Positions 7,028 through 15,585 of a stretch of 64,000 nucleotides of DNA are shown here, in pieces. Numbering within the stretch: position 1 is the stretch's first letter; the number at the start of each line of letters is the position of its first letter. A program made the translations under genes and the position numbers. The DNA lies in assembly GCA_039589995.1 (NCBI GenBank), contig JBDHGH010000003.1, positions 16,647-80,646 on the forward strand, given 5' to 3'. The stretch is from Gemmatimonadota bacterium. Its GTDB lineage: Bacteria > Gemmatimonadota > Gemmatimonadetes > Palauibacterales > KS3-K002. Below the pieces are notes generated by a model. That model had not been told where the DNA came from. It did no database searches and saw only the letters and a list, made by a program, of their open reading frames with translations.

Positions 7028-8275
7028 TCAAGGCCAGTTCAGAATCATCTGCACGTAGCCCCACCACGTCGTATCCTTACCACCCTGGAAGGCAGGCAGG
7101 AGTTGCGTAACTAGATCTTCCGGGAAAAAGACCCCGAAGCCCGCTTGCACGGCTCCGGGCTTTGCGAACTTCCAATTGCCCACCAGATCCAACTCGGTGC
7201 CCAGCGCCGTTTCTCCACCGCGTTTCTTGGCCGTGTTGAAGCGGTGCAGGTCGAGGCTGAGCCGGGTGTTCGTACCTGTGTCGAGGGAGCCCCTGAGAAC
7301 GGCATCGACAAGTCCCGCCCCATCGAGCTGCAACCTGGGGGCGAGAAAATAGTCCATGATGCCGTAGAACTTATGGTTGGTGGCGTACAAGGTGGTGAAG
7401 GACTCGATGTCGCCGGACGCCGGGTCATCGTCGCCTGACAAGTAGTCCACTTGGGCCGCTATGGTTCCCTTCCCGATGGCCACGCCAAGCCGCCCGCTGC
7501 CGAAGTAGGCACTGCGACTCGGGCCGCCCTGATATGCCCCTGCACCTTCATATAGGACCACCCCACTCCGACCGTGGAGTCGCAAGTTCACCGTATACGA
7601 CTTTTCTGTGATCGCATCCACATCGTACAGCGCGGTCAACTCGGAATTGACGTCACCAAACGTCTTCGACGCAAACCCGCCGATCAGCCAGCCGTCGTCG
7701 TAGACCCCCTGGTTCAGCTGGGGGTGTAAACCGACGGTCAACAACGAATCACGCTCGACCACATTGTAGGCAAAAGCAGACCAGCCAATCCCACCGGCCA
7801 CGCCTAACACACGCACGCCGTCGAAGGACCGGCCGGTGTTGCTCCAGCCAACGGCGCCCACGAGCCTCTCGTCTGCAAGCGGCGCTTCTTGCCGTCCAAG
7901 CCGCGCGGTGAACGCATCGGTGCTCCCAAGTTCGGCGTAGCCCTGATGCATATCGAAGTTATCGGCACCTGCGTCGGTAAGCGTGTTGATTTCGCTGCCC
8001 CAGGCTCGCGCATCTTGTAGCTGTACGTAGGCGCGGATCCAATCCATCAAGCCCACTCTGGCTCCGCCGCGGATCCGTGACAACGTCGCGAAGTCGGGCT
8101 TGAAGCCAGTCGTTCGCCCGTCACCCTCTGCACGCAAGCGGAACTGGCCGTCAAATCTGATCTTGGGAAACTCGTCCTCGTCTTGAGCCTGCACCGTGCC
8201 CGGCATAGCCGCGAACATCAAACACGTGACCAATAGCGCGTTCAGCACCCGGTTGAGACTCGAGCGGAGCAGCAT
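7028..8275 (-). CDS. Alginate export family outer-membrane beta-barrel porin
   Basis: Signal peptide ending VQA; GQFRLRAE, VQLQDARAWG, RLGRQE...RLVGAVGWSNTGRSFDG, LYATNHKFYG, GTELDL; GGAGGT Shine-Dalgarno before ATG 8275. Confidence 0.8.
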   Translation of the reverse strand: MLLRSSLNRVLNALLVTCLMFAAMPGTVQAQDEDEFPKIRFDGQFRLRAEGDGRTTGFKPDFATLSRIRGGARVGLMDWIRAYVQLQDARAWGSEINTLTDAGADNFDMHQGYAELGSTDAFTARLGRQEAPLADERLVGAVGWSNTGRSFDGVRVLGVAGGIGWSAFAYNVVERDSLLTVGLHPQLNQGVYDDGWLIGGFASKTFGDVNSELTALYDVDAITEKSYTVNLRLHGRSGVVLYEGAGAYQGGPSRSAYFGSGRLGVAIGKGTIAAQVDYLSGDDDPASGDIESFTTLYATNHKFYGIMDYFLAPRLQLDGAGLVDAVLRGSLDTGTNTRLSLDLHRFNTAKKRGGETALGTELDLVGNWKFAKPGAVQAGFGVFFPEDLVTQLLPAFQGGKDTTWWGYVQMILNWP

Positions 8276-8432
8276 ACCCCACCTCCGATTGGTGTGCCTG
8301 ATCATGAATGACAACCGCGAGACGGACTGCGCCCGACTGCGGATCGAGATAGAAAGGACGGTTGGGTAGGACCGCTCCGCACGAGGGTACGGATGGCTTG
8401 CTCACTTGGCCGCAAGACCGCGTGGCCAATAT

Positions 8433-8525
8433 TTATCACCCTGGAATGAGAATCAAGTAGGAGCGACTCCTAAAGTATTGACGCCAGCGAATCGGCGTCC
8501 CAATATCCTCACATTCAGGTGATAA
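8433..8525. promoter_or_regulatory. Divergent promoter region with symmetric operator-like sites
   Basis: TAGGAG-cga-CTCCTA palindrome at 8458-8472; TTGACG at 8478-8483; TTATCACCCTGGAATGAG (8433-8450) is mirrored imperfectly by CTCACATTCAGGTGATAA (8508-8525). Confidence 0.5.
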
Positions 8526-8692
8526 TCTCGTGCACCGGGGTCCATCGGCCTTGCGTCGCTGCCCCGGCCTGAACGACAGCCCCAGCAGCTTTTACCAGCC
8601 CATAGAACTCAATCGCGTTCTGCTCCGGGCCGTGGATCACGGCCGCACGGAGTCGAACCCGTGCGTCAGTTACTCGCTCGAGGAAGGCCAAG

Positions 8693-9313
8693 ATGGCAGA
8701 CGAAGAAAGACGCGAAAACGGAAACACGACCGAAGGGACCCACCGACGCGACTTTCTGAAGAACGCGTCACGGGCCGCGATGACCGCGGGTATCGTGGGC
8801 GGCTATGGAGGATTTGCGCTCATCGCCGGTCGCTACCTCTACCCCTCCCGCACGGGCGAGGTGATGTGGCAGCTGGTGAGCGAGGTGGAAGGTATCAAGG
8901 TCGGCGAGTCGATTCGATATCGCGGGCCTTCCGGCGAGACCATCAACATCACTCGAATGAGTCGGGACGGCGGGTCCGGCGACTTCATCGCCCTCTCCAG
9001 CACGTGCCCTCACCTCGGTTGTCAGGTGCGCTGGGAAGCACAGAACAATCGCTTCTTCTGCCCGTGTCACAACGGCGTGTTCGATCGGTCCGGCGTGGCC
9101 ACCGCAGGGCCGCCTGGCGAGGCGGGCCAAGCACTGCCGAAGTACGAACTGAACGTCGAGGGAGGACTTCTCTTCATCGCCGTGCCGCCGCCGCGATTTT
9201 CGGATGCGGACCCGCGCGGCGAGGTTTTGGAAGGCGATGAGTGCGTCAGCGGGCCGGGACATGACCCCTGTCTCGCCGTTCGCCCGAAGCGCAAACCCGG
9301 CACCCTAGTCTAG
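8693..9313 (+). CDS. Rieske [2Fe-2S] subunit of a Rieske/cytochrome b complex
   Basis: Tat motif HRRDFLK followed by a TM helix; CPHLGC and CPCHNG boxes; GPP. Confidence 0.93.
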   Translation: MADEERRENGNTTEGTHRRDFLKNASRAAMTAGIVGGYGGFALIAGRYLYPSRTGEVMWQLVSEVEGIKVGESIRYRGPSGETINITRMSRDGGSGDFIALSSTCPHLGCQVRWEAQNNRFFCPCHNGVFDRSGVATAGPPGEAGQALPKYELNVEGGLLFIAVPPPRFSDADPRGEVLEGDECVSGPGHDPCLAVRPKRKPGTLV

Positions 9314-9346
9314 GGAGAGCGAACCCCAGATCGAGAGACGGCTACG

Positions 9347-10396
9347 ATGACAATCGTTCGTAACTGGTTCGGTGAGCGCCTGCCTGTCTCGGGTCGACAG
9401 TTTCGCGAGCTGACCAATGAACCGGTTCCCTATCATCTGAAGCGCTGGTGGTTCGCTCTCGGCGGCACGCCGGCCTACCTGTTCATAGTCCAGATCTTCA
9501 CCGGCATCCTGCTGGCCTTCTACTACGAAGCGTCGCCGGTCACCGCGTACGAGTCGGTGGAATACATCACACGCGAGGTTTCGTTCGGGTGGTACATCCG
9601 AAGCGTACACAAGTGGGCCGCCACCCTGATGATCGTGGCAGTCATCCTCCACCAGATGCGCGTGTTCTTCACCGGCGCTTATCGAAAGCCAAGGGAGATC
9701 AACTGGATCGTTGGCATGTGCCTGCTGTTTTGCACGCTCATGACCGGATTTACCGGTTACAGCTTGGTTTACGAGCAATTGAGCTTCTGGGGTGCCACCG
9801 TCGGCGCCAACATCGCCGAAACGGTTCCCTTCATTGGCGGATTCATTAAGCGGATGATGCTGGCGGGTGACGGCTACAACCAGGCTACGCTATCGCGGTT
9901 CTTCGTGCTCCACGCGGCTATCCTGCCGGTGACCATCGTGTTTCTAGTCGCGATTCACATCACGGTGATCCGCATGCAGGGTGTGACCGAGTTCCGTTTC
10001 AAGGACGAAGAAACGGGGGCGCCCAAGACGTTCAACTTTTTCCCGGATCACCTCTACACGGAGCTGATGATCGGTCTCGTATTGATGATCCTGCTCAGTG
10101 CTCTGGCCACGATCCTTCCAGCCACTCTAGGCGAACAGGCCAATCCGCTGCAGACGCCGGAGGTGATCAAGCCGGAATGGTTCTTCTACGTCGCTTTCCG
10201 CTGGCTGAAGCTTTTCGCCGGGACGGCGGCGGTTCTGAGCATGGGCTTCATCGTGTTCATCATGTTCGCATGGCCTTTCATAGACGGTTGGGTGCGAAAA
10301 CACACGCGCTTCCAAGAATTCAGCGTCTATGTGGGGATCATTGGCGTCTTTACCATCATCGGCCTGACGCTGTGGGAAGCTATAGCCCGGCACTAA
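9347..10396 (+). CDS. Cytochrome b/b6 (unsplit) of a Rieske/cytochrome b complex
   Basis: His pairs VHKW...ILHQMR and VLHAA...AIHI; GAYRKPREINW; FTGYSL; Qo motif IKPEWFF. Confidence 0.95.
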   Translation: MTIVRNWFGERLPVSGRQFRELTNEPVPYHLKRWWFALGGTPAYLFIVQIFTGILLAFYYEASPVTAYESVEYITREVSFGWYIRSVHKWAATLMIVAVILHQMRVFFTGAYRKPREINWIVGMCLLFCTLMTGFTGYSLVYEQLSFWGATVGANIAETVPFIGGFIKRMMLAGDGYNQATLSRFFVLHAAILPVTIVFLVAIHITVIRMQGVTEFRFKDEETGAPKTFNFFPDHLYTELMIGLVLMILLSALATILPATLGEQANPLQTPEVIKPEWFFYVAFRWLKLFAGTAAVLSMGFIVFIMFAWPFIDGWVRKHTRFQEFSVYVGIIGVFTIIGLTLWEAIARH

Positions 10397-10456
10397 CTCG
10401 CGGAATCGAATGCTACAACGACGGACCTTCTTAGATCGTAAGTACAGGGGAGATCA

Positions 10457-12100
10457 ATGACTCTCGAGACCAAACGCATCGTCATCGCCGCACTCGGCGG
10501 CCTGTTCCTCGTCTCCCTGATCCTGGTTCAGTGGATGGAGACGGCGCGCAAGGCGGAGGAAGCCGGCCTGAGGGCTCCTCACGTATCCGTTCCGGCGGCA
10601 TCGCGGCAATGTGTCGAGTGCCACGCCGAGGAGAACCCGGGGATCGTGGCGCACTGGGAGGGCAGCACGCACGCGCAGACGGGCGTGGGCTGCCTGGAGT
10701 GCCATCAGGCCGAGCGCGAAGAGGCGGACAGTTACCTGCACCACGGCGAACAGATCGCCACGATCGTGACGCCACGCGATTGTGCACGCTGTCACGACCA
10801 CGAGGCCGAAGAGTTCGCACAGAGCCACCACGCTGCAGGCGGTAATATCCTCGCCTCGCTGGACAACTTCCTGGCCGAGACGGTGGAAGGCGCGCGTATG
10901 TTCTTCAGCCCCCACTCGCCGACGCCGGGCAAAGCCGTGGAGTTCGTGAACGGCTTCGCCAGCGCCAACTCCGGGTGCCAGCAGTGCCACGGCTCGAAGG
11001 TGGCTTTGACCTCCAGCGATGGCGGCGCGATCACCGTGGACGATCTCGAGCCCGACGCTGACGGCCGCCCCACCAACCTCGATGCCGTCGGCCGCATCGT
11101 ACGCGACGAAAACGGAAAGCCGATTCTAAGCTCGATGACTTGGCCCAACACCGGAATCGGTCGCCTGAACCTCGACGGCTCGCGTGGGTCCTGTACCGCC
11201 TGCCATAGCCGACACGACTTCTCGCCGCGCCGCGCCCGGCAGCCCGAGAACTGTGGCAAGTGCCACTTGGGGCCGGACCACCCGCAGAAGGAAGTCTACG
11301 AGGAGTCGAAGCACGGGATCGCGTTCCGGGACCTGAAGGCAGAGATGAACCTGGATGCCAGTGAGTGGGTGCTCGGCCGGGACTATGCGGCGGCTCCTAC
11401 GTGCGCCACCTGTCACATGTCGGCCAACATTCGCAACGGCGGTCGGATCACGCACGATCCGGGCGAGCGGATATCCTGGACGAACCGTCCGGCGGTCAGC
11501 CTGGTGATGGACACCGATATCAACCACAACATCGTCACCGAGACGGAGCCGGAAACTCGGCGCTCCCTCATCCACGACACCGCAGAACAGAAGCGGGACC
11601 GGATGAAGGAAGTCTGTTCGAACTGCCACACGACCGCCTACGTCAATGACTTCTACAAGCAGTACGACGCGCTGGTAATCCTCTACAACGAGAAGTTCGC
11701 GAAGCCCGGATTGGCTATCATGGGCGCACTGGTGAACAACGGTCTACGCACACCGACGAACTTCGACGAAGAGATAGAGTGGACGTGGTTCTACCTGTGG
11801 CATCACGAAGGCCGCCGAGCACGGCATGGCGCCTCGATGATGGCACCCGATTACACGCACTGGCACGGCATGTACGAAGTCGCCGAGCGTTTCTACATGG
11901 AGCTAATCCCGCAGGCACGAGAGATCGTGAGCCACGCGCTTACCGAGGGACATCGTAACGAGGCGTTTGCGGTCAGCGCAGTTATCGACGAGATCCTCGC
12001 GCGGCCCGAGCACATCTGGTTCGAAGAAGGAGCCGAAGCGCAAATGCAGCGGATCCGAGAGGAAATGGAACGTCGCTACGGGCGCGGACAGCAGAACTGA
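10457..12100 (+). CDS. Membrane-anchored octaheme cytochrome c, hydroxylamine oxidoreductase-like; probably reductive (nitrite/NO/hydroxylamine reductase)
   Basis: Eight CxxCH motifs (CVECH, CLECH, CARCH, CQQCH, CTACH, CGKCH, CATCH, CSNCH); CHSRHDFS; GPDHPQKEVYEESKHG; MMAPDYTHWHG; N-terminal TM helix. Confidence 0.88.
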   Translation: MTLETKRIVIAALGGLFLVSLILVQWMETARKAEEAGLRAPHVSVPAASRQCVECHAEENPGIVAHWEGSTHAQTGVGCLECHQAEREEADSYLHHGEQIATIVTPRDCARCHDHEAEEFAQSHHAAGGNILASLDNFLAETVEGARMFFSPHSPTPGKAVEFVNGFASANSGCQQCHGSKVALTSSDGGAITVDDLEPDADGRPTNLDAVGRIVRDENGKPILSSMTWPNTGIGRLNLDGSRGSCTACHSRHDFSPRRARQPENCGKCHLGPDHPQKEVYEESKHGIAFRDLKAEMNLDASEWVLGRDYAAAPTCATCHMSANIRNGGRITHDPGERISWTNRPAVSLVMDTDINHNIVTETEPETRRSLIHDTAEQKRDRMKEVCSNCHTTAYVNDFYKQYDALVILYNEKFAKPGLAIMGALVNNGLRTPTNFDEEIEWTWFYLWHHEGRRARHGASMMAPDYTHWHGMYEVAERFYMELIPQAREIVSHALTEGHRNEAFAVSAVIDEILARPEHIWFEEGAEAQMQRIREEMERRYGRGQQN

Positions 12101-12115
12101 ATAAGGAAAGTCGCC

Positions 12116-14491
12116 ATGAAACGGAGGAAATTCCTTAAGACCCTGGGCGCGTCGACGGTTGGCGTCGCCGCCTTCTCGTGCACCGACCAGGAACAGGCTC
12201 GACGCCTGCAAGGTGACGCTGGATCCATATCCGAGGCGGACCTGACCTGGAGCAAAGCACCTTGTCGTTACTGCGGCACCGGCTGCGGCGTCGAGGTCGG
12301 CGTGAAGGACGGGCACGTGGTAACGGTGCGAGGCGACGAGAAGAGCCCCGTTAACCGCGGCCTACTGTGCGTGAAGGGATACCATCTGCCTGGCATGCTG
12401 TACGGCGAAGATCGGCTGAAGTACCCGATGCTTCGCGAGGGCGACGGCTGGAAGCGCATCTCTTGGGACGAGGCGTTGGATCTCGTCGCGGCGAAGTACC
12501 AGGAAGCGCTCGACGAGTCGGGGCCCGAGTCCGTGGCGATCTACGGGTCGGGCCAGTGGACAGTGTTCGACGGCTACGCCGCATCGAAATGGTTCCGCGG
12601 CGGCCTGCGCAGCAACAACGTCGAGCCCAACGCGCGTCTCTGCATGGCTTCTGCCGTGACCGGCTTCATGACGCAGTTCCAGAGCGACGAGCCCATGGGC
12701 TGCTACGAGGATTTCGAAGTCGGCGACGACTTCATCCTCTGGGGCAATAACATGGCCGAGATGCACCCGGTGCTGTTCTCGCGCATCCTGGCGAACAAGC
12801 GAGAGAACCCCGGCGTTCGCATAATCGACCTCGGCACGCGACGCACTCCAACCACCGACCACGCCGACATGTACGTGGAGTTCACGCCGAACAGCGATCT
12901 GGCCATCGCCAACGGCATACTCCACCTGTTGCTCCGCGACGGGAACGTGAACAACGCTTTCGTGCGCGAGAACGTGATCTTCAAGCGCGGAATCGAAGAT
13001 CTCGAGCAGATCGGCTACGGATGTTGGGGTGAGGACGGCCTGGCGCTCAGCCCAGACGCCGTGCCCGCCGAACGTTACCTCTTCCGCGATCAGGGTCGCG
13101 ATTCTTCCTTCGAAGAACTCGAGGCGTTCCTCGCCGATTACACGCCGGAACGAGTCAGCGAGATCTCCGGCGTGCCGGTCCAGCAGATCCATCAGTTGGC
13201 CGATATTTACGGCGATCCCAACCGCGGCACCGTCAGCCTTTGGTGCATGGGGGTGAACCAGCACGTCCGCGGCACCTGGATGAACAATCTGATCACCGAC
13301 CTGCACCTGATCACGGGAAAGATCAGCCGCCCCGGCGCCAACCCATGGAGCCTGACGGGCCAGCCCTCGGCATGCGGCACGGTACGCGAGGTCGGCACGC
13401 TGGCGCATCGTCTGCCCGCCGACATGGTGGTGATGAACGCCGAGCATCGGGCGAAGGCTGAAGAGATCTGGGGGTTGCCCGAGGGCACCATCCCACCTCG
13501 GCCCGGCTACCACACGATGGACATGTTTCGCGCCTTCATGCGCGGCGACGTTAAAGTGATGTGGACGCAGACCACGAACCCCTGGGTGAGCATCCCGAAC
13601 CTGAACCGCATCCAGCGCGAGCCCGGCGACGGCAAGTTCCTGATCGTCAGCGACATCTACCCGACGCCATCCACAGAGGTGGCCGACCTGGTTCTGCCGG
13701 CTGCGGCCTGGGTGGAACGCGAGGGTGTGTTCGGAAACTCCGAGCGTCGCACCCAGCAGTGGAACAAAGCGGTCGAGCCCCCCGGCGAAGCCAAGGAAGA
13801 TGCCTGGCAGATCGTCGAGGTAGCCAAGCGCATGGGCATGGAGCACCTGTTCCCGTGGCCGGACGATGACTGGCACGAGCCGATGTACGAAGAGTATCGG
13901 AGCTTCACTCTGGGACTGGGCAAGGACGTGGGTTCCTACGCGCAGCTGAAAGAGGCACGCGGGCTATTGTGGCCGGTGGTCGACGGCGTAGAGACGCGTT
14001 ACCGCTATGCCGCCGGCTACGATCCTTATGTGCAGAAGAGCCGCGGGGTGCACTTCTACAAAGCCAAGGGCTACGGCGAGCGGGCGGCGTTCTGGCTGCG
14101 GCCGTGGCACCCGGCGGCCGAGTCGCCGGACGAGGAATTCCCGTTCTGGCTATGCACGGGCCGCGTCCTGGAGCACTGGCACACCGGCTCGATGACCCGA
14201 AGGGTGAAGCAGCTGCACCAGGCGGTGACCGAAGGCTACGTCGAGGTGAACCGCGCCGATGCGCAGCGCCTGGGGGTTGGTGCCGGTCAGATGGTCCGCG
14301 TGGTCAGTCGACGCGGGACCCTCGAGCTGCCTGCCATGATCGACGGCAGGGGCAAGCCTCCGCAGGGATCGGTCTTCATTCCGTTCTTCGACGAAGCACG
14401 GTTACCCAACGTGCTGACCGTCGACGCTATGGACAACATCAGCAAAGAACCGGATTTCAAGAAATGCGCGGTCCGACTAGAGCTCGTCTGA
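12116..14491 (+). CDS. napA: Periplasmic nitrate reductase catalytic subunit
   Basis: Tat MKRRKFLK; CRYCGTGC 4Fe-4S; NARLCMASA Mo ligand; DEPMGCY; NMAEMHP; SLTGQPSACGT; GRVLEHWHTGSMTRR; PDFKKCAV. Confidence 0.96.
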   Translation: MKRRKFLKTLGASTVGVAAFSCTDQEQARRLQGDAGSISEADLTWSKAPCRYCGTGCGVEVGVKDGHVVTVRGDEKSPVNRGLLCVKGYHLPGMLYGEDRLKYPMLREGDGWKRISWDEALDLVAAKYQEALDESGPESVAIYGSGQWTVFDGYAASKWFRGGLRSNNVEPNARLCMASAVTGFMTQFQSDEPMGCYEDFEVGDDFILWGNNMAEMHPVLFSRILANKRENPGVRIIDLGTRRTPTTDHADMYVEFTPNSDLAIANGILHLLLRDGNVNNAFVRENVIFKRGIEDLEQIGYGCWGEDGLALSPDAVPAERYLFRDQGRDSSFEELEAFLADYTPERVSEISGVPVQQIHQLADIYGDPNRGTVSLWCMGVNQHVRGTWMNNLITDLHLITGKISRPGANPWSLTGQPSACGTVREVGTLAHRLPADMVVMNAEHRAKAEEIWGLPEGTIPPRPGYHTMDMFRAFMRGDVKVMWTQTTNPWVSIPNLNRIQREPGDGKFLIVSDIYPTPSTEVADLVLPAAAWVEREGVFGNSERRTQQWNKAVEPPGEAKEDAWQIVEVAKRMGMEHLFPWPDDDWHEPMYEEYRSFTLGLGKDVGSYAQLKEARGLLWPVVDGVETRYRYAAGYDPYVQKSRGVHFYKAKGYGERAAFWLRPWHPAAESPDEEFPFWLCTGRVLEHWHTGSMTRRVKQLHQAVTEGYVEVNRADAQRLGVGAGQMVRVVSRRGTLELPAMIDGRGKPPQGSVFIPFFDEARLPNVLTVDAMDNISKEPDFKKCAVRLELV

Positions 14492-15585
14492 CGATCTGCG
14501 TTCTGGCCGGTGCCGCACTGACGGCATCCGGCTGTAGCTACGGTGACAGGGTCCCGGTCCCCGACCGGGAGGGAGCGGTCAAATCGACCGCCGCCGTGAG
14601 GGCCGACCGGCGCGCCTACGACGGCGCGCCACCGACGATCCCGCACGCAGCCTTCGGTGCACGCTGCGCCGCGTGTCATAACGCGCAGGGGCAATCGGTG
14701 AGCGGGGTCGGCTTCGCCCCCGCTTCTCCCCACGAGGGAACGGCTGTGGCCGGCGCCACCGCCCGCTGTAACCAATGTCACGTCTACGTCACCGACGGAG
14801 GACTGTTCGTGCCCTCCGAGTACCAACCTCTCGAACAGAACCTGCGGCACGGAAGTCGAGCGACGCCGGGCGCGCCGCCGACCATTCCGCACCGTATTCT
14901 GATGCGAGAGAACTGCGTGGCCTGTCACGATGGACCGGGCGCTCGCGAAGAAGTGCGCACGACGCACCCCGAGCGCTGGCGCTGCCGGCAGTGCCACGTC
15001 CCGGCCACGGCACGGGAAGGCTTCGACAGCGACCTGGGTTCAGGCTACATAAACGGGGACGAAGCGCGGCGCCTCTGGGACGGCGCCAAGGAAGCCCAGG
15101 CCAGTGCTGCCGACAATCTGATTTCACTTTGCGAATCCCTCGATCTCGGTCTGCACGCGGCCGAAATTCTGGCCATCAGCCGGTTGAATCCTATAAAGGA
15201 CAGTTTCCCCGCGACCATCGGGCTGCTGCTGAACATGCCGATGCCCGAGGTGGATCCTCTGCAGGACGGCATCAACGTGCCCAAATCGCTGCTGTTCACC
15301 GATGTCATCGATCTGCTCAGCATCGAAGAGCTCGAGTGCGTAAGCCCCGGGATGCACAGGGGCTGGGAAGACAGACGCTTTGCCTGCCGACGCTCTCGTG
15401 GTGCCGCCCAGGAAGCCACCCGTGTCTCGCTCTCGGCCGAAGACCAGAAGCAATTGCTGGTACTGGCAGCTTACCGTAACCGGCTCTTCCGAGCCCCTCC
15501 ACCCGTCCGCATCGAAACCAGCGCGATCCTACCCGCGTTCAAGCACTTGGAGAAGCTGGTGGAAGGACTGCTGGCCGCCGGCTAG
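14464..15585 (+). CDS. Tetraheme NapB-like lipoprotein (two NapB-like repeats) with a ~175-aa unrelated C-terminal extension
   Basis: ATG 14464 overlaps the napA 3' end; lipobox LTASGC; two GAPPTIPH repeats with CAACH/CNQCH and CVACH/CRQCH. Confidence 0.8.
   Translation: MRGPTRARLTICVLAGAALTASGCSYGDRVPVPDREGAVKSTAAVRADRRAYDGAPPTIPHAAFGARCAACHNAQGQSVSGVGFAPASPHEGTAVAGATARCNQCHVYVTDGGLFVPSEYQPLEQNLRHGSRATPGAPPTIPHRILMRENCVACHDGPGAREEVRTTHPERWRCRQCHVPATAREGFDSDLGSGYINGDEARRLWDGAKEAQASAADNLISLCESLDLGLHAAEILAISRLNPIKDSFPATIGLLLNMPMPEVDPLQDGINVPKSLLFTDVIDLLSIEELECVSPGMHRGWEDRRFACRRSRGAAQEATRVSLSAEDQKQLLVLAAYRNRLFRAPPPVRIETSAILPAFKHLEKLVEGLLAAG

Follow-up and report, generated by a model that had tools for sequence, protein, structure and literature searches.

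Nap, the nitrate reductase of the periplasm, and nitrite reductases of the hydroxylamine oxidoreductase (HAO) type are generally held not to conserve energy themselves, and it is their link to the quinone pool that sets the energy yield of nitrate respiration and bears on whether nitrogen is kept as ammonium or lost as gas. A study by Garg and colleagues from 2018, cited in PMC6896113, reportedly describes Qcr-dependent Nap respiration in Campylobacter jejuni, a Rieske/cytochrome bc coupling, potentially electrogenic, such as is proposed here. The Qcr of that bacterium is of the conventional kind, equipped with a c-type cytochrome of its own, and its genes are not linked to nap. In Caldithrix abyssi, the cluster Cabys_2564-2556 has the order napM-napA-napG...napH-Rieske-cytochrome b with an εHao gene adjacent, and NapB, NapC and NrfA are missing according to the genome paper (PMC5317091, 2017). 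The same source proposes that the Rieske/cytochrome b pair oxidises quinol, feeds a tetrahaem cytochrome and/or εHao and generates proton-motive force, and it describes C. abyssi as a cultured bacterium that makes ammonium from nitrate. Here we analyse a related operon in a 64,000-nucleotide stretch of DNA (the window) from a Gemmatimonadota bacterium (GenBank assembly GCA_039589995.1, contig JBDHGH010000003.1, positions 16,647 to 80,646, forward strand), which encodes a Rieske protein, a cytochrome b, an octahaem cytochrome c of the HAO family, NapA and a tetrahaem NapB-like protein. The operon is a compact Nap/Rieske-cytochrome b/εHao arrangement without NapC or NapGH, and its kind is already known: an earlier note on this DNA, made from the letters of the sequence, knew of no such combination, whereas both the C. 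abyssi cluster and the same inference are found in PMC5317091.

We think it fairly probable that the operon encodes an alternative complex III, composed of the Rieske protein, a b6/subunit IV-type cytochrome b and, in the functional place of cytochrome c1 or f, the octahaem cytochrome, which would reduce nitrite and also feed Nap. This account draws on the genes, on family comparison and on a predicted interface. All genes of the operon lie on the + strand, with spacings of 33, 60 and 15 nt followed by −28 nt, where napA and the tetrahaem gene overlap; the five co-oriented genes, three gaps and one overlap listed in the earlier note match these coordinates exactly. Its fifth gene was correctly identified as a tetrahaem cytochrome but given too great an extent: the longest open reading frame (ORF), 13969-15585, is rejected in favour of a coding start at ATG 14464, where a lipoprotein signal with a lipobox begins, and the last 177 residues correspond to a sixth ORF. 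The operon comprises:

8693 to 9313, + strand: Rieske [2Fe-2S] subunit with a twin-arginine N-terminus (PF00355, 39.5 bits)
9347 to 10396, + strand: cytochrome b, fused b6 and subunit IV (PF00033, 178.1 bits; PF00032, 38.5 bits)
10457 to 12100, + strand: membrane-anchored octahaem HAO-family cytochrome c, IhOCC/εHao-like (eight CxxCH motifs; PF13447, 81.7 bits)
12116 to 14491, + strand: NapA with a twin-arginine translocation (Tat) signal (NF010055, 945.4 bits, cut-off 904)
14464 to 15051, + strand: tetrahaem lipoprotein with two NapB-like dihaem repeats (Pfam NapB, 28.3 bits, cut-off 25.1)
15052 to 15585, + strand: conserved all-helical unit (about 177 aa), here joined in frame with the tetrahaem cytochrome; its homologue in relatives is a separate ORF

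Profile scans of the window's proteins found no gene for cytochrome c1, NapC, NapG, NapH, NapD, NapF or NrfA within the cluster, which bears out the absences of c1, napC, napGH, napD and nrfA that had been noted before, and a Pfam scan of the window found no NAD(P) oxidoreductase gene near the operon. A chimeric assembly, which the earlier note had named as a danger to its proposal, is ruled out by the even GC content of the window (0.60-0.65) and by the same gene order in independent metagenome-assembled genomes (MAGs) and a closed chromosome, the synteny recurring in related genomes. Among sequencing runs, a search listed one DNA run that contains 0.05 of the sampled words, and no RNA run.

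The first two genes have the hallmarks of the bc1/b6f superfamily. The Rieske translation holds the cluster-binding boxes CPHLGC and CPCH, the CxHxGC and CxCH signature of Rieske proteins, together with an RRDFLK twin-arginine motif. Cytochrome b has seven hydrophobic segments, and its haem ligands H88, H102, H189 and H204 as well as the Qo-site residues P276-E277-W278 (read as PEWF) are invariant among 58 orthologues, so that the four histidines and the PEWY-type Qo motif of the bc1/b6f superfamily are both present. No gene for a third redox subunit of the c1 or f type occurs at the locus; the HAO-family octahaem gene comes after cytochrome b instead.

The octahaem cytochrome carries eight CxxCH motifs and a single hydrophobic segment, which is N-terminal (residues 8-26). 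In the PDB it resembles IhOCC of Ignicoccus hospitalis (4qo5) most closely, at E 8.2e-46 with the sequence itself and E 1.1e-108 with a 37-sequence family profile; the profile matches 4qo5 at positions 30-423 of 461, that is, with the full-length homology expected within the HAO family. After IhOCC, the sequence search ranks the reductive anammox enzyme HAOr (6h5l) and then oxidative HAOs, while in the profile search NeHAO (4fas) edges ahead of HAOr. A Foldseek search with an AlphaFold2 (AF2) model of the octahaem protein returned HAO-family proteins as all of its top nine matches, in the same order as by sequence; as the model is haem-less and poor, with a mean predicted local distance difference test score (pLDDT) of 70.1 and residues 233-343 below 50, we used the order of the hits and not their geometry. 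In the profile alignment, the column of NeHAO Tyr467, the presumed tyrosine of the P460 cross-link, is occupied by His468 in the window protein. An Asp-His pair aligned to NeHAO D267/H268 is invariant among the 58 orthologues, and the column of NeHAO Tyr334 is an invariant Arg; here, too, the roles of the NeHAO residues are those we presume. The comparison supports the octahaem cytochrome as a reductive kind of HAO-family enzyme, nearest to IhOCC and without Tyr at the aligned column. IhOCC itself is called an octahaem nitrite reductase lacking the P460 haem in PMC9250108. PMC8042395 describes a cross-link of Tyr to the catalytic haem of HAO, and states that Tyr-less εHAOs reduce nitrite and hydroxylamine and that HAOr converts nitrite to NO. 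By analogy with these nearest relatives, the octahaem protein of the window may act as a reductase of nitrite, hydroxylamine or NO. We also considered recoding in this gene family: an in-frame TAG in the octahaem genes of relatives is their natural stop, the window protein being two residues longer, and recoding is ruled out.

The association of the octahaem gene with Rieske and cytochrome b genes extends far beyond this genome. A scan for the octahaem, with one genome per species, returned at least 589 stretches, and the best 80 of these (67-88% identity) were analysed; counts of related loci below refer to these 80. According to record names and tree labels, they derive from Gemmatimonadota, Acidobacteriota, Planctomycetota, Chloroflexota, Binatota, Myxococcota, Krumholzibacteriota and Eiseniibacteriota, plus UBP7. 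Cytochrome b lies directly upstream of the octahaem gene in all 77 loci that have at least 300 nt of upstream sequence, and a Rieske gene is found upstream in 70 of the 71 with at least 1700 nt; the sole miss (L005), in which a masked run of N lies beside a truncated cytochrome b match, was counted as a miss. NapA follows the octahaem gene directly in 45 of the 80 loci. Where at least 3200 nt of downstream sequence exist (n = 63), NapA occurs in 35 loci and NapA with the tetrahaem gene in 34, and the tetrahaem gene never occurs without NapA. Nothing is conserved downstream of the octahaem gene in the 23 listed loci without NapA, and the trio therefore appears self-sufficient there, with the octahaem protein as its terminal element. 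Judged by gene order, Rieske-cytochrome b-octahaem is a self-contained three-gene module, and NapA with the double NapB is an optional cassette. In a FastTree phylogeny of 81 octahaem sequences, the presence of NapA changes 12 times, and well-supported branches require at least eight of these changes; as the tree is quickly built and has no root, we limit the claim to a repeated change of NapA linkage. The tree does not follow phyla, and the distribution of the octahaem gene within the phylum of the window is patchy (11 of 401 sampled genomes, this one included, and both of the two genomes in its family).

The octahaem protein is also a predicted partner of cytochrome b. Complex prediction gave the pair a score of 0.74 (runs at 0.73, 0.74 and 0.76), compared with 0.00 for the best of three controls; among 80 solved complexes, 58 attain a score of 0.74, as do 2 of 110 mismatched pairs, a calibration that holds only roughly, as our own alignments were used. 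At least 92% of the contacts agree between runs, with a partner pLDDT of at least 85. The predicted interface places octahaem residues 1-38 against cytochrome b residues 93-109 and 324-346, and within the N-terminal helix F17, L18, S20, L21, V24, Q25 and E28 are invariant across phyla. We predict that this helix binds cytochrome b, which the model supports without showing it. Cytochromes c1 and f have C-terminal anchors, and because the octahaem anchor is N-terminal, the protein would stand in their functional, not their structural, place.

The interpretation in the earlier note is partly supported. Its reductive reading of the octahaem protein agrees with IhOCC as the nearest relative and with the lack of Tyr at the NeHAO cross-link column, and its pairing of the Rieske/cytochrome b genes with an HAO-like octahaem is strengthened by the near-universal synteny and the predicted binding of the N-terminal helix to cytochrome b. 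The comparison of gene neighbourhoods, which it had suggested, shows the trio to be nearly always syntenic and the linkage to NapA and a NapB-like tetrahaem protein to recur, in 45 of the 80 loci. As for the structure of the multi-subunit complex, the prediction covered the cytochrome b-octahaem pair and was favourable (0.74 against 0.00).

The remaining genes form the Nap cassette. NapA scores above the cut-off of the equivalogue profile NF010055 and just under that of TIGR01706 (913.6 bits against 930.55), matches PF04879, PF00384 and PF01568, and carries an RRKFLK Tat motif. Its nearest PDB chains, 2nya (Escherichia coli, E 3.1e-243), 3ml1 and 1ogy, are the enzymes of E. coli, Cupriavidus and Rhodobacter, with E values up to 2.2e-232, and by these matches the window NapA belongs to the NapAB-type lineage. 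In one related locus, from an Acidobacteriota genome (L029:11672-15409), the napA match is interrupted, its two parts lying about 1.3 kb from each other, as an insertion in the gene would explain. The tetrahaem lipoprotein contains four CxxCH motifs in two repeats, the halves being 36% identical (E 6e-9). The Pfam NapB threshold is passed narrowly, and by the first repeat only, and matches to NapB chains in the PDB are weak (E 0.055-0.3); the protein is a tandem of two dihaem units, NapB being a single dihaem domain of about 130-150 aa. It has 2238 homologues at E <= 1e-5, and the 120 listed are 166-225 aa long, many of them named NapB by JGI.

Taken together, these features would allow the following electron flow: (i) Quinol, presumably menaquinol, would be oxidised at the Qo site, by cytochrome b and the Rieske protein. 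(ii) One electron would pass via the Rieske cluster to the anchored octahaem cytochrome. (iii) At a five-coordinate haem of its own, the octahaem cytochrome would reduce nitrite and probably hydroxylamine or NO as well. (iv) Where the cassette is present, the octahaem cytochrome would also hand electrons to the NapB-like lipoprotein and on to NapA, so that neither NapC nor NapGH would be needed for the reduction of nitrate to nitrite. With a Q-cycle in operation, the nitrate and nitrite steps would both be coupled to proton translocation. For the product of the octahaem cytochrome we lean towards ammonium, with NO as the alternative.

Several observations weigh against this account, in whole or in part. 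NapA linkage is absent in 35 of the 80 related loci. A near-invariant tyrosine, Y466, lies two residues before the column of the cross-link Tyr, and an alignment shift of two residues would place a Tyr there. The haem-less AF2 model of the octahaem protein is poor (pLDDT 70), with template-modelling (TM) scores to HAO structures of just 0.14-0.27, and the calibration of the complex prediction is rough, for the reason given above. HAO-family enzymes are trimers and Rieske/cytochrome b complexes are dimers, a mismatch in stoichiometry that our account leaves unexplained. In the anammox complex, AlphaFold3 failed to place the HAO-like subunit, as PMC12954380 reports. The genome, assembled to 4.37 Mb in 323 contigs and 89.5% complete, also encodes a full-length NirS (cd1, 364 bits) and NosZ away from the window (contigs C227, C76 and C250, a set that includes the Hcp fragment mentioned below), so that a route from nitrite to NO and N2O exists that bypasses the octahaem cytochrome. 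Furthermore, a NapC/NirT-family tetrahaem protein of 219 aa is encoded on contig C85 (48.9 bits for the protein in a Pfam scan; 43.2 bits at the same place in a genome search) and could serve NapAB. The earlier note had named napC or napGH elsewhere in the genome as a finding that would tell against its proposal; this holds for the NapC/NirT family, on C85, while for NapH there is no match above cut-off. Its claim of nitrate ammonification is not established, with NirS and NosZ in the same genome; the ammonification reading is weakened because NirS offers nitrite a second route and NapAB may have a donor of the NapC type.

Among the other explanations, the one that survives best, though we hold it to be unlikely, takes the octahaem protein for an NO-forming nitrite reductase like anammox HAOr or Kuste4574 and the locus for the front end of denitrification, from nitrate via nitrite to NO. 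HAOr is the second-best PDB relative by sequence and in the order of Foldseek hits (with NeHAO 4fas ahead in the profile search), and it makes NO from nitrite according to PMC8042395. Kuste4574 is part of a Rieske/cytochrome b complex and is a proposed NO maker, and a survey of Phycisphaerae suggests that the octahaem stands in for missing NirK/NirS. The genome supplies arguments in both directions, since NosZ fits such a pathway, whereas with NirS an NO-forming nitrite reductase is already present. The nearer relatives, IhOCC and the εHAOs, are however described as reducing nitrite and hydroxylamine, and C. abyssi, with its like cluster, makes ammonium (PMC5317091).

It seems rather improbable to us that the NapC/NirT-family quinol dehydrogenase of contig C85, though unlinked, supplies NapAB with electrons, with the adjacency to the trio reflecting co-regulation under anoxia only. 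The C85 gene adjoins another Rieske/cytochrome b/heptahaem cluster and not nap, and at the related loci the tetrahaem gene never occurs without NapA, the pair standing directly after the trio in 34 of 63; neither NapD nor NapGH goes with it. What this explanation has in its favour is the presence of the 219-aa protein itself and the separability of the cassette, NapA linkage having been gained or lost at least eight times on the octahaem tree.

We regard it as distinctly improbable that the octahaem protein is a mere electron wire, a non-catalytic multihaem substitute for c1 or f that serves NapAB, NirS, NosZ or other periplasmic acceptors. The Asp-His pair of the HAO distal pocket is invariant, the 67-88% identity over the whole protein across phyla goes beyond what a wire would need, and in the 23 listed NapA-less loci the trio stands alone, with no adjoining acceptor gene to be wired to. 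Nevertheless, NapA linkage is frequent, three more cytochrome b genes of this genome adjoin multihaem cytochromes, and in many anaerobes c1 is replaced by multihaem cytochromes (cited in PMC5317091). An oxidative role of the octahaem protein, from hydroxylamine to NO or nitrite, is very improbable: it would agree with the names of close homologues in databases ('hydroxylamine oxidoreductase' or 'hydroxylamine dehydrogenase'), with the scoring of the gene as hydroxylamine oxidation in PMC11316326 and with the near-invariant Tyr two residues from the cross-link column, but the aligned column itself has no Tyr, P460 is missing from the closest relative of solved structure, the gene occurs in linkage with a nitrate reductase, and Rieske/cytochrome b complexes normally send electrons from quinol to the c-type subunit. 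An alternative complex III with a nitrite-reducing octahaem cytochrome remains the account we prefer.

The rest of the genome adds further redox genes. No NapD or NapH match rises above cut-off in this 89.5%-complete assembly, and likewise there is no convincing or over-cut-off match to NirK. The lone genome match to NrfA (Cytochrom_C552) is unconvincing, at 24.3 bits against a cut-off of 24.1, over 47 profile positions in an 806-aa ORF elsewhere. A fragment of Hcp lies at a contig edge away from the window. Contig C85 carries a second alternative Rieske/cytochrome b cluster (L093:5281-11435), which encodes an 833-aa heptahaem-TPR protein, a Rieske protein and a 459-aa cytochrome b on the − strand; beside it, on the + strand, lie the NapC/NirT-family tetrahaem gene (219 aa) and a gene for a cyclic nucleotide monophosphate (cNMP)-binding regulator. 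On contig C196, two cytochrome b genes flank ORFs with 9, 21 and 8 CxxCH motifs. Six ORFs with 3-9 CxxCH motifs occur on contig C117, and contig C2 holds a 966-aa ORF with 19. This richness in multihaem cytochromes suggests a capacity for extracellular or metal electron transfer.

The sixth unit of the operon is less readily interpreted. Residues 197-373 of the fifth reading frame (177 aa) are homologous to a sixth ORF that lies downstream of the tetrahaem gene and is separate in 12 related Gemmatimonadota loci and in a genome of the same family, G049 (13 of 13); the in-frame fusion occurs only in this assembly. The stop codon that ends the tetrahaem gene of the relatives is missing from the window, along with their spacer and the initial dozen codons of their sixth ORF, which points either to a small deletion or to an assembly fault. 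The unit has no Pfam match, and its AF2 model is helical (pLDDT 79.4). Foldseek found no PDB match at E <= 0.001, the top hit being a HEPN domain at E 0.78, and the Atlas yields only HEPN-like resemblances at TM scores of about 0.5-0.6, which are below 0.9 and insignificant. A role as a NapD- or TorD-like chaperone was considered, and nothing supports it. Inside the coding sequence of this unit, at window positions 15464-15495 (+ strand), there is a sub-threshold Rfam match to PhotoRC-I (25.3 bits against a gathering threshold of 45), which is probably due to chance.

Upstream of the operon lie two further features:

7028 to 8314, − strand: outer-membrane porin of the Alginate_exp family (PF13372, 77.1 bits)
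8315 to 8692, + strand: upstream intergenic region of 378 nt, presumed to hold the promoter and leader

The porin gene is divergent from the operon, and its homologues adjoin the cluster in 13 of the 80 related loci, mostly in Gemmatimonadota; it may be a candidate outer-membrane channel for anions (nitrate or nitrite). The upstream region shows no sigma-70 consensus and no Rfam family match, and its terminator-like sites are at chance level (6 found, 5.1 expected). An alignment with close relatives reveals a TTGAC-containing stretch that is partly common to them. The remaining flanking genes are unrelated housekeeping genes.

The trio as such is a conserved and widely distributed module, and probably a misannotated one. 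A survey of marine Gemmatimonadota (PMC11316326), which by isolate names is the source of several related loci, takes the octahaem gene for one that oxidises hydroxylamine to NO and nowhere uses the words Rieske or cytochrome b. Poriferisphaera corsica, a cultured bacterium, encodes the octahaem according to PMC11266412. The Phycisphaerae survey records an Onr-like octahaem and says that Phycisphaerales lack bc1, yet three Phycisphaeraceae loci in our set (L044, L054 and L061) have Rieske and cytochrome b genes before the octahaem gene. In these three loci the Rieske-cytochrome b pair lies directly upstream of the octahaem gene and seems to be missed by standard annotation. The literature searched holds no account of the trio as a widespread module beyond anammox bacteria and Caldithrix, and no description of the NapGH-less form with a double NapB, although subscription papers and supplements lie outside that scope and may bear on this. 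Nor was a description of the operon in Gemmatimonadota found in this literature, subscription papers and supplements aside, in keeping with the earlier note, which knew of no characterisation in this phylum.

More tentatively, we consider it possible that Rieske-cytochrome b-HAO constitutes a respiratory enzyme in its own right, a complex III that contains its own nitrite reductase, oxidises menaquinol through a Q-cycle, reduces nitrite at the octahaem subunit and is widespread, with at least 589 species-level genomes as carriers and eight named phyla plus UBP7 among the best 80 loci. Together with the Nap cassette, it would then form a two-step, energy-conserving module from nitrate to ammonium (or to NO) that is independent of NapC, NapGH, NrfA and NirK/S. 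If the trio is a quinol:nitrite oxidoreductase, a gene common in sediment, soil and sludge is being misread in censuses of the nitrogen cycle, MAG surveys overlook the trio or count it as 'hydroxylamine oxidation', and many genomes apparently without a nitrite reductase would have one, so that the 'missing nitrite reductase' of nitrate reducers in sediments could in part be explained. Q-cycle-coupled reduction of nitrate and nitrite would then extend beyond Campylobacterota and anammox bacteria. Since the module is small (three to five genes), highly conserved and reported in at least one cultured nitrate ammonifier, this proposal is directly testable.

The operon of the window can be set beside several known systems. 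Like canonical NapAB, it has a NapA that matches the equivalogue profile and a partner cytochrome with NapB-like dihaem units; unlike canonical NapAB, it has no NapC, NapG, NapH, NapD or NapF in the cluster, and the partner is a lipoprotein with a tetrahaem tandem of NapB. In contrast to C. jejuni, a single operon holds all the genes, with an HAO-family enzyme as the c-type subunit. The window protein is, like IhOCC (4qo5) and εHao, an octahaem of the HAO clade; those two enzymes lack the P460 cross-link and are described as reducing nitrite and hydroxylamine. They are, however, described as soluble or membrane-associated proteins and not as subunits encoded after Rieske/cytochrome b, whereas the octahaem protein of the window has a conserved N-terminal transmembrane helix that is predicted to bind cytochrome b.

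Two systems pair Rieske and cytochrome b with an HAO-family protein. In the anammox complex R/b-3 (kuste4569-4574), as in our account of the window operon, an HAO-family octahaem (there Kuste4574) belongs to a Rieske/cytochrome b complex and is a proposed nitrite reducer (PMC12485887 and PMC12954380). According to the same papers, R/b-3 has a split b6 and subunit IV, an NAD(P) oxidoreductase subunit and, in the position of f, an extra hexa- or octahaem protein; in the window, cytochrome b is fused, the HAO-like protein is the sole c-type subunit, and the neighbourhood has no gene for an NAD(P) oxidoreductase. With Caldithrix, going by its published description, the operon shares consecutive genes for a Rieske protein, cytochrome b and an octahaem of the HAO family, next to which stand genes for NapA and a tetrahaem cytochrome. 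The nap genes of Caldithrix stand on the other side of the trio and include NapGH as an alternative quinol route, whereas in the window NapGH is absent from the cluster, the nap genes follow the trio, and the tetrahaem protein is a double-NapB lipoprotein.

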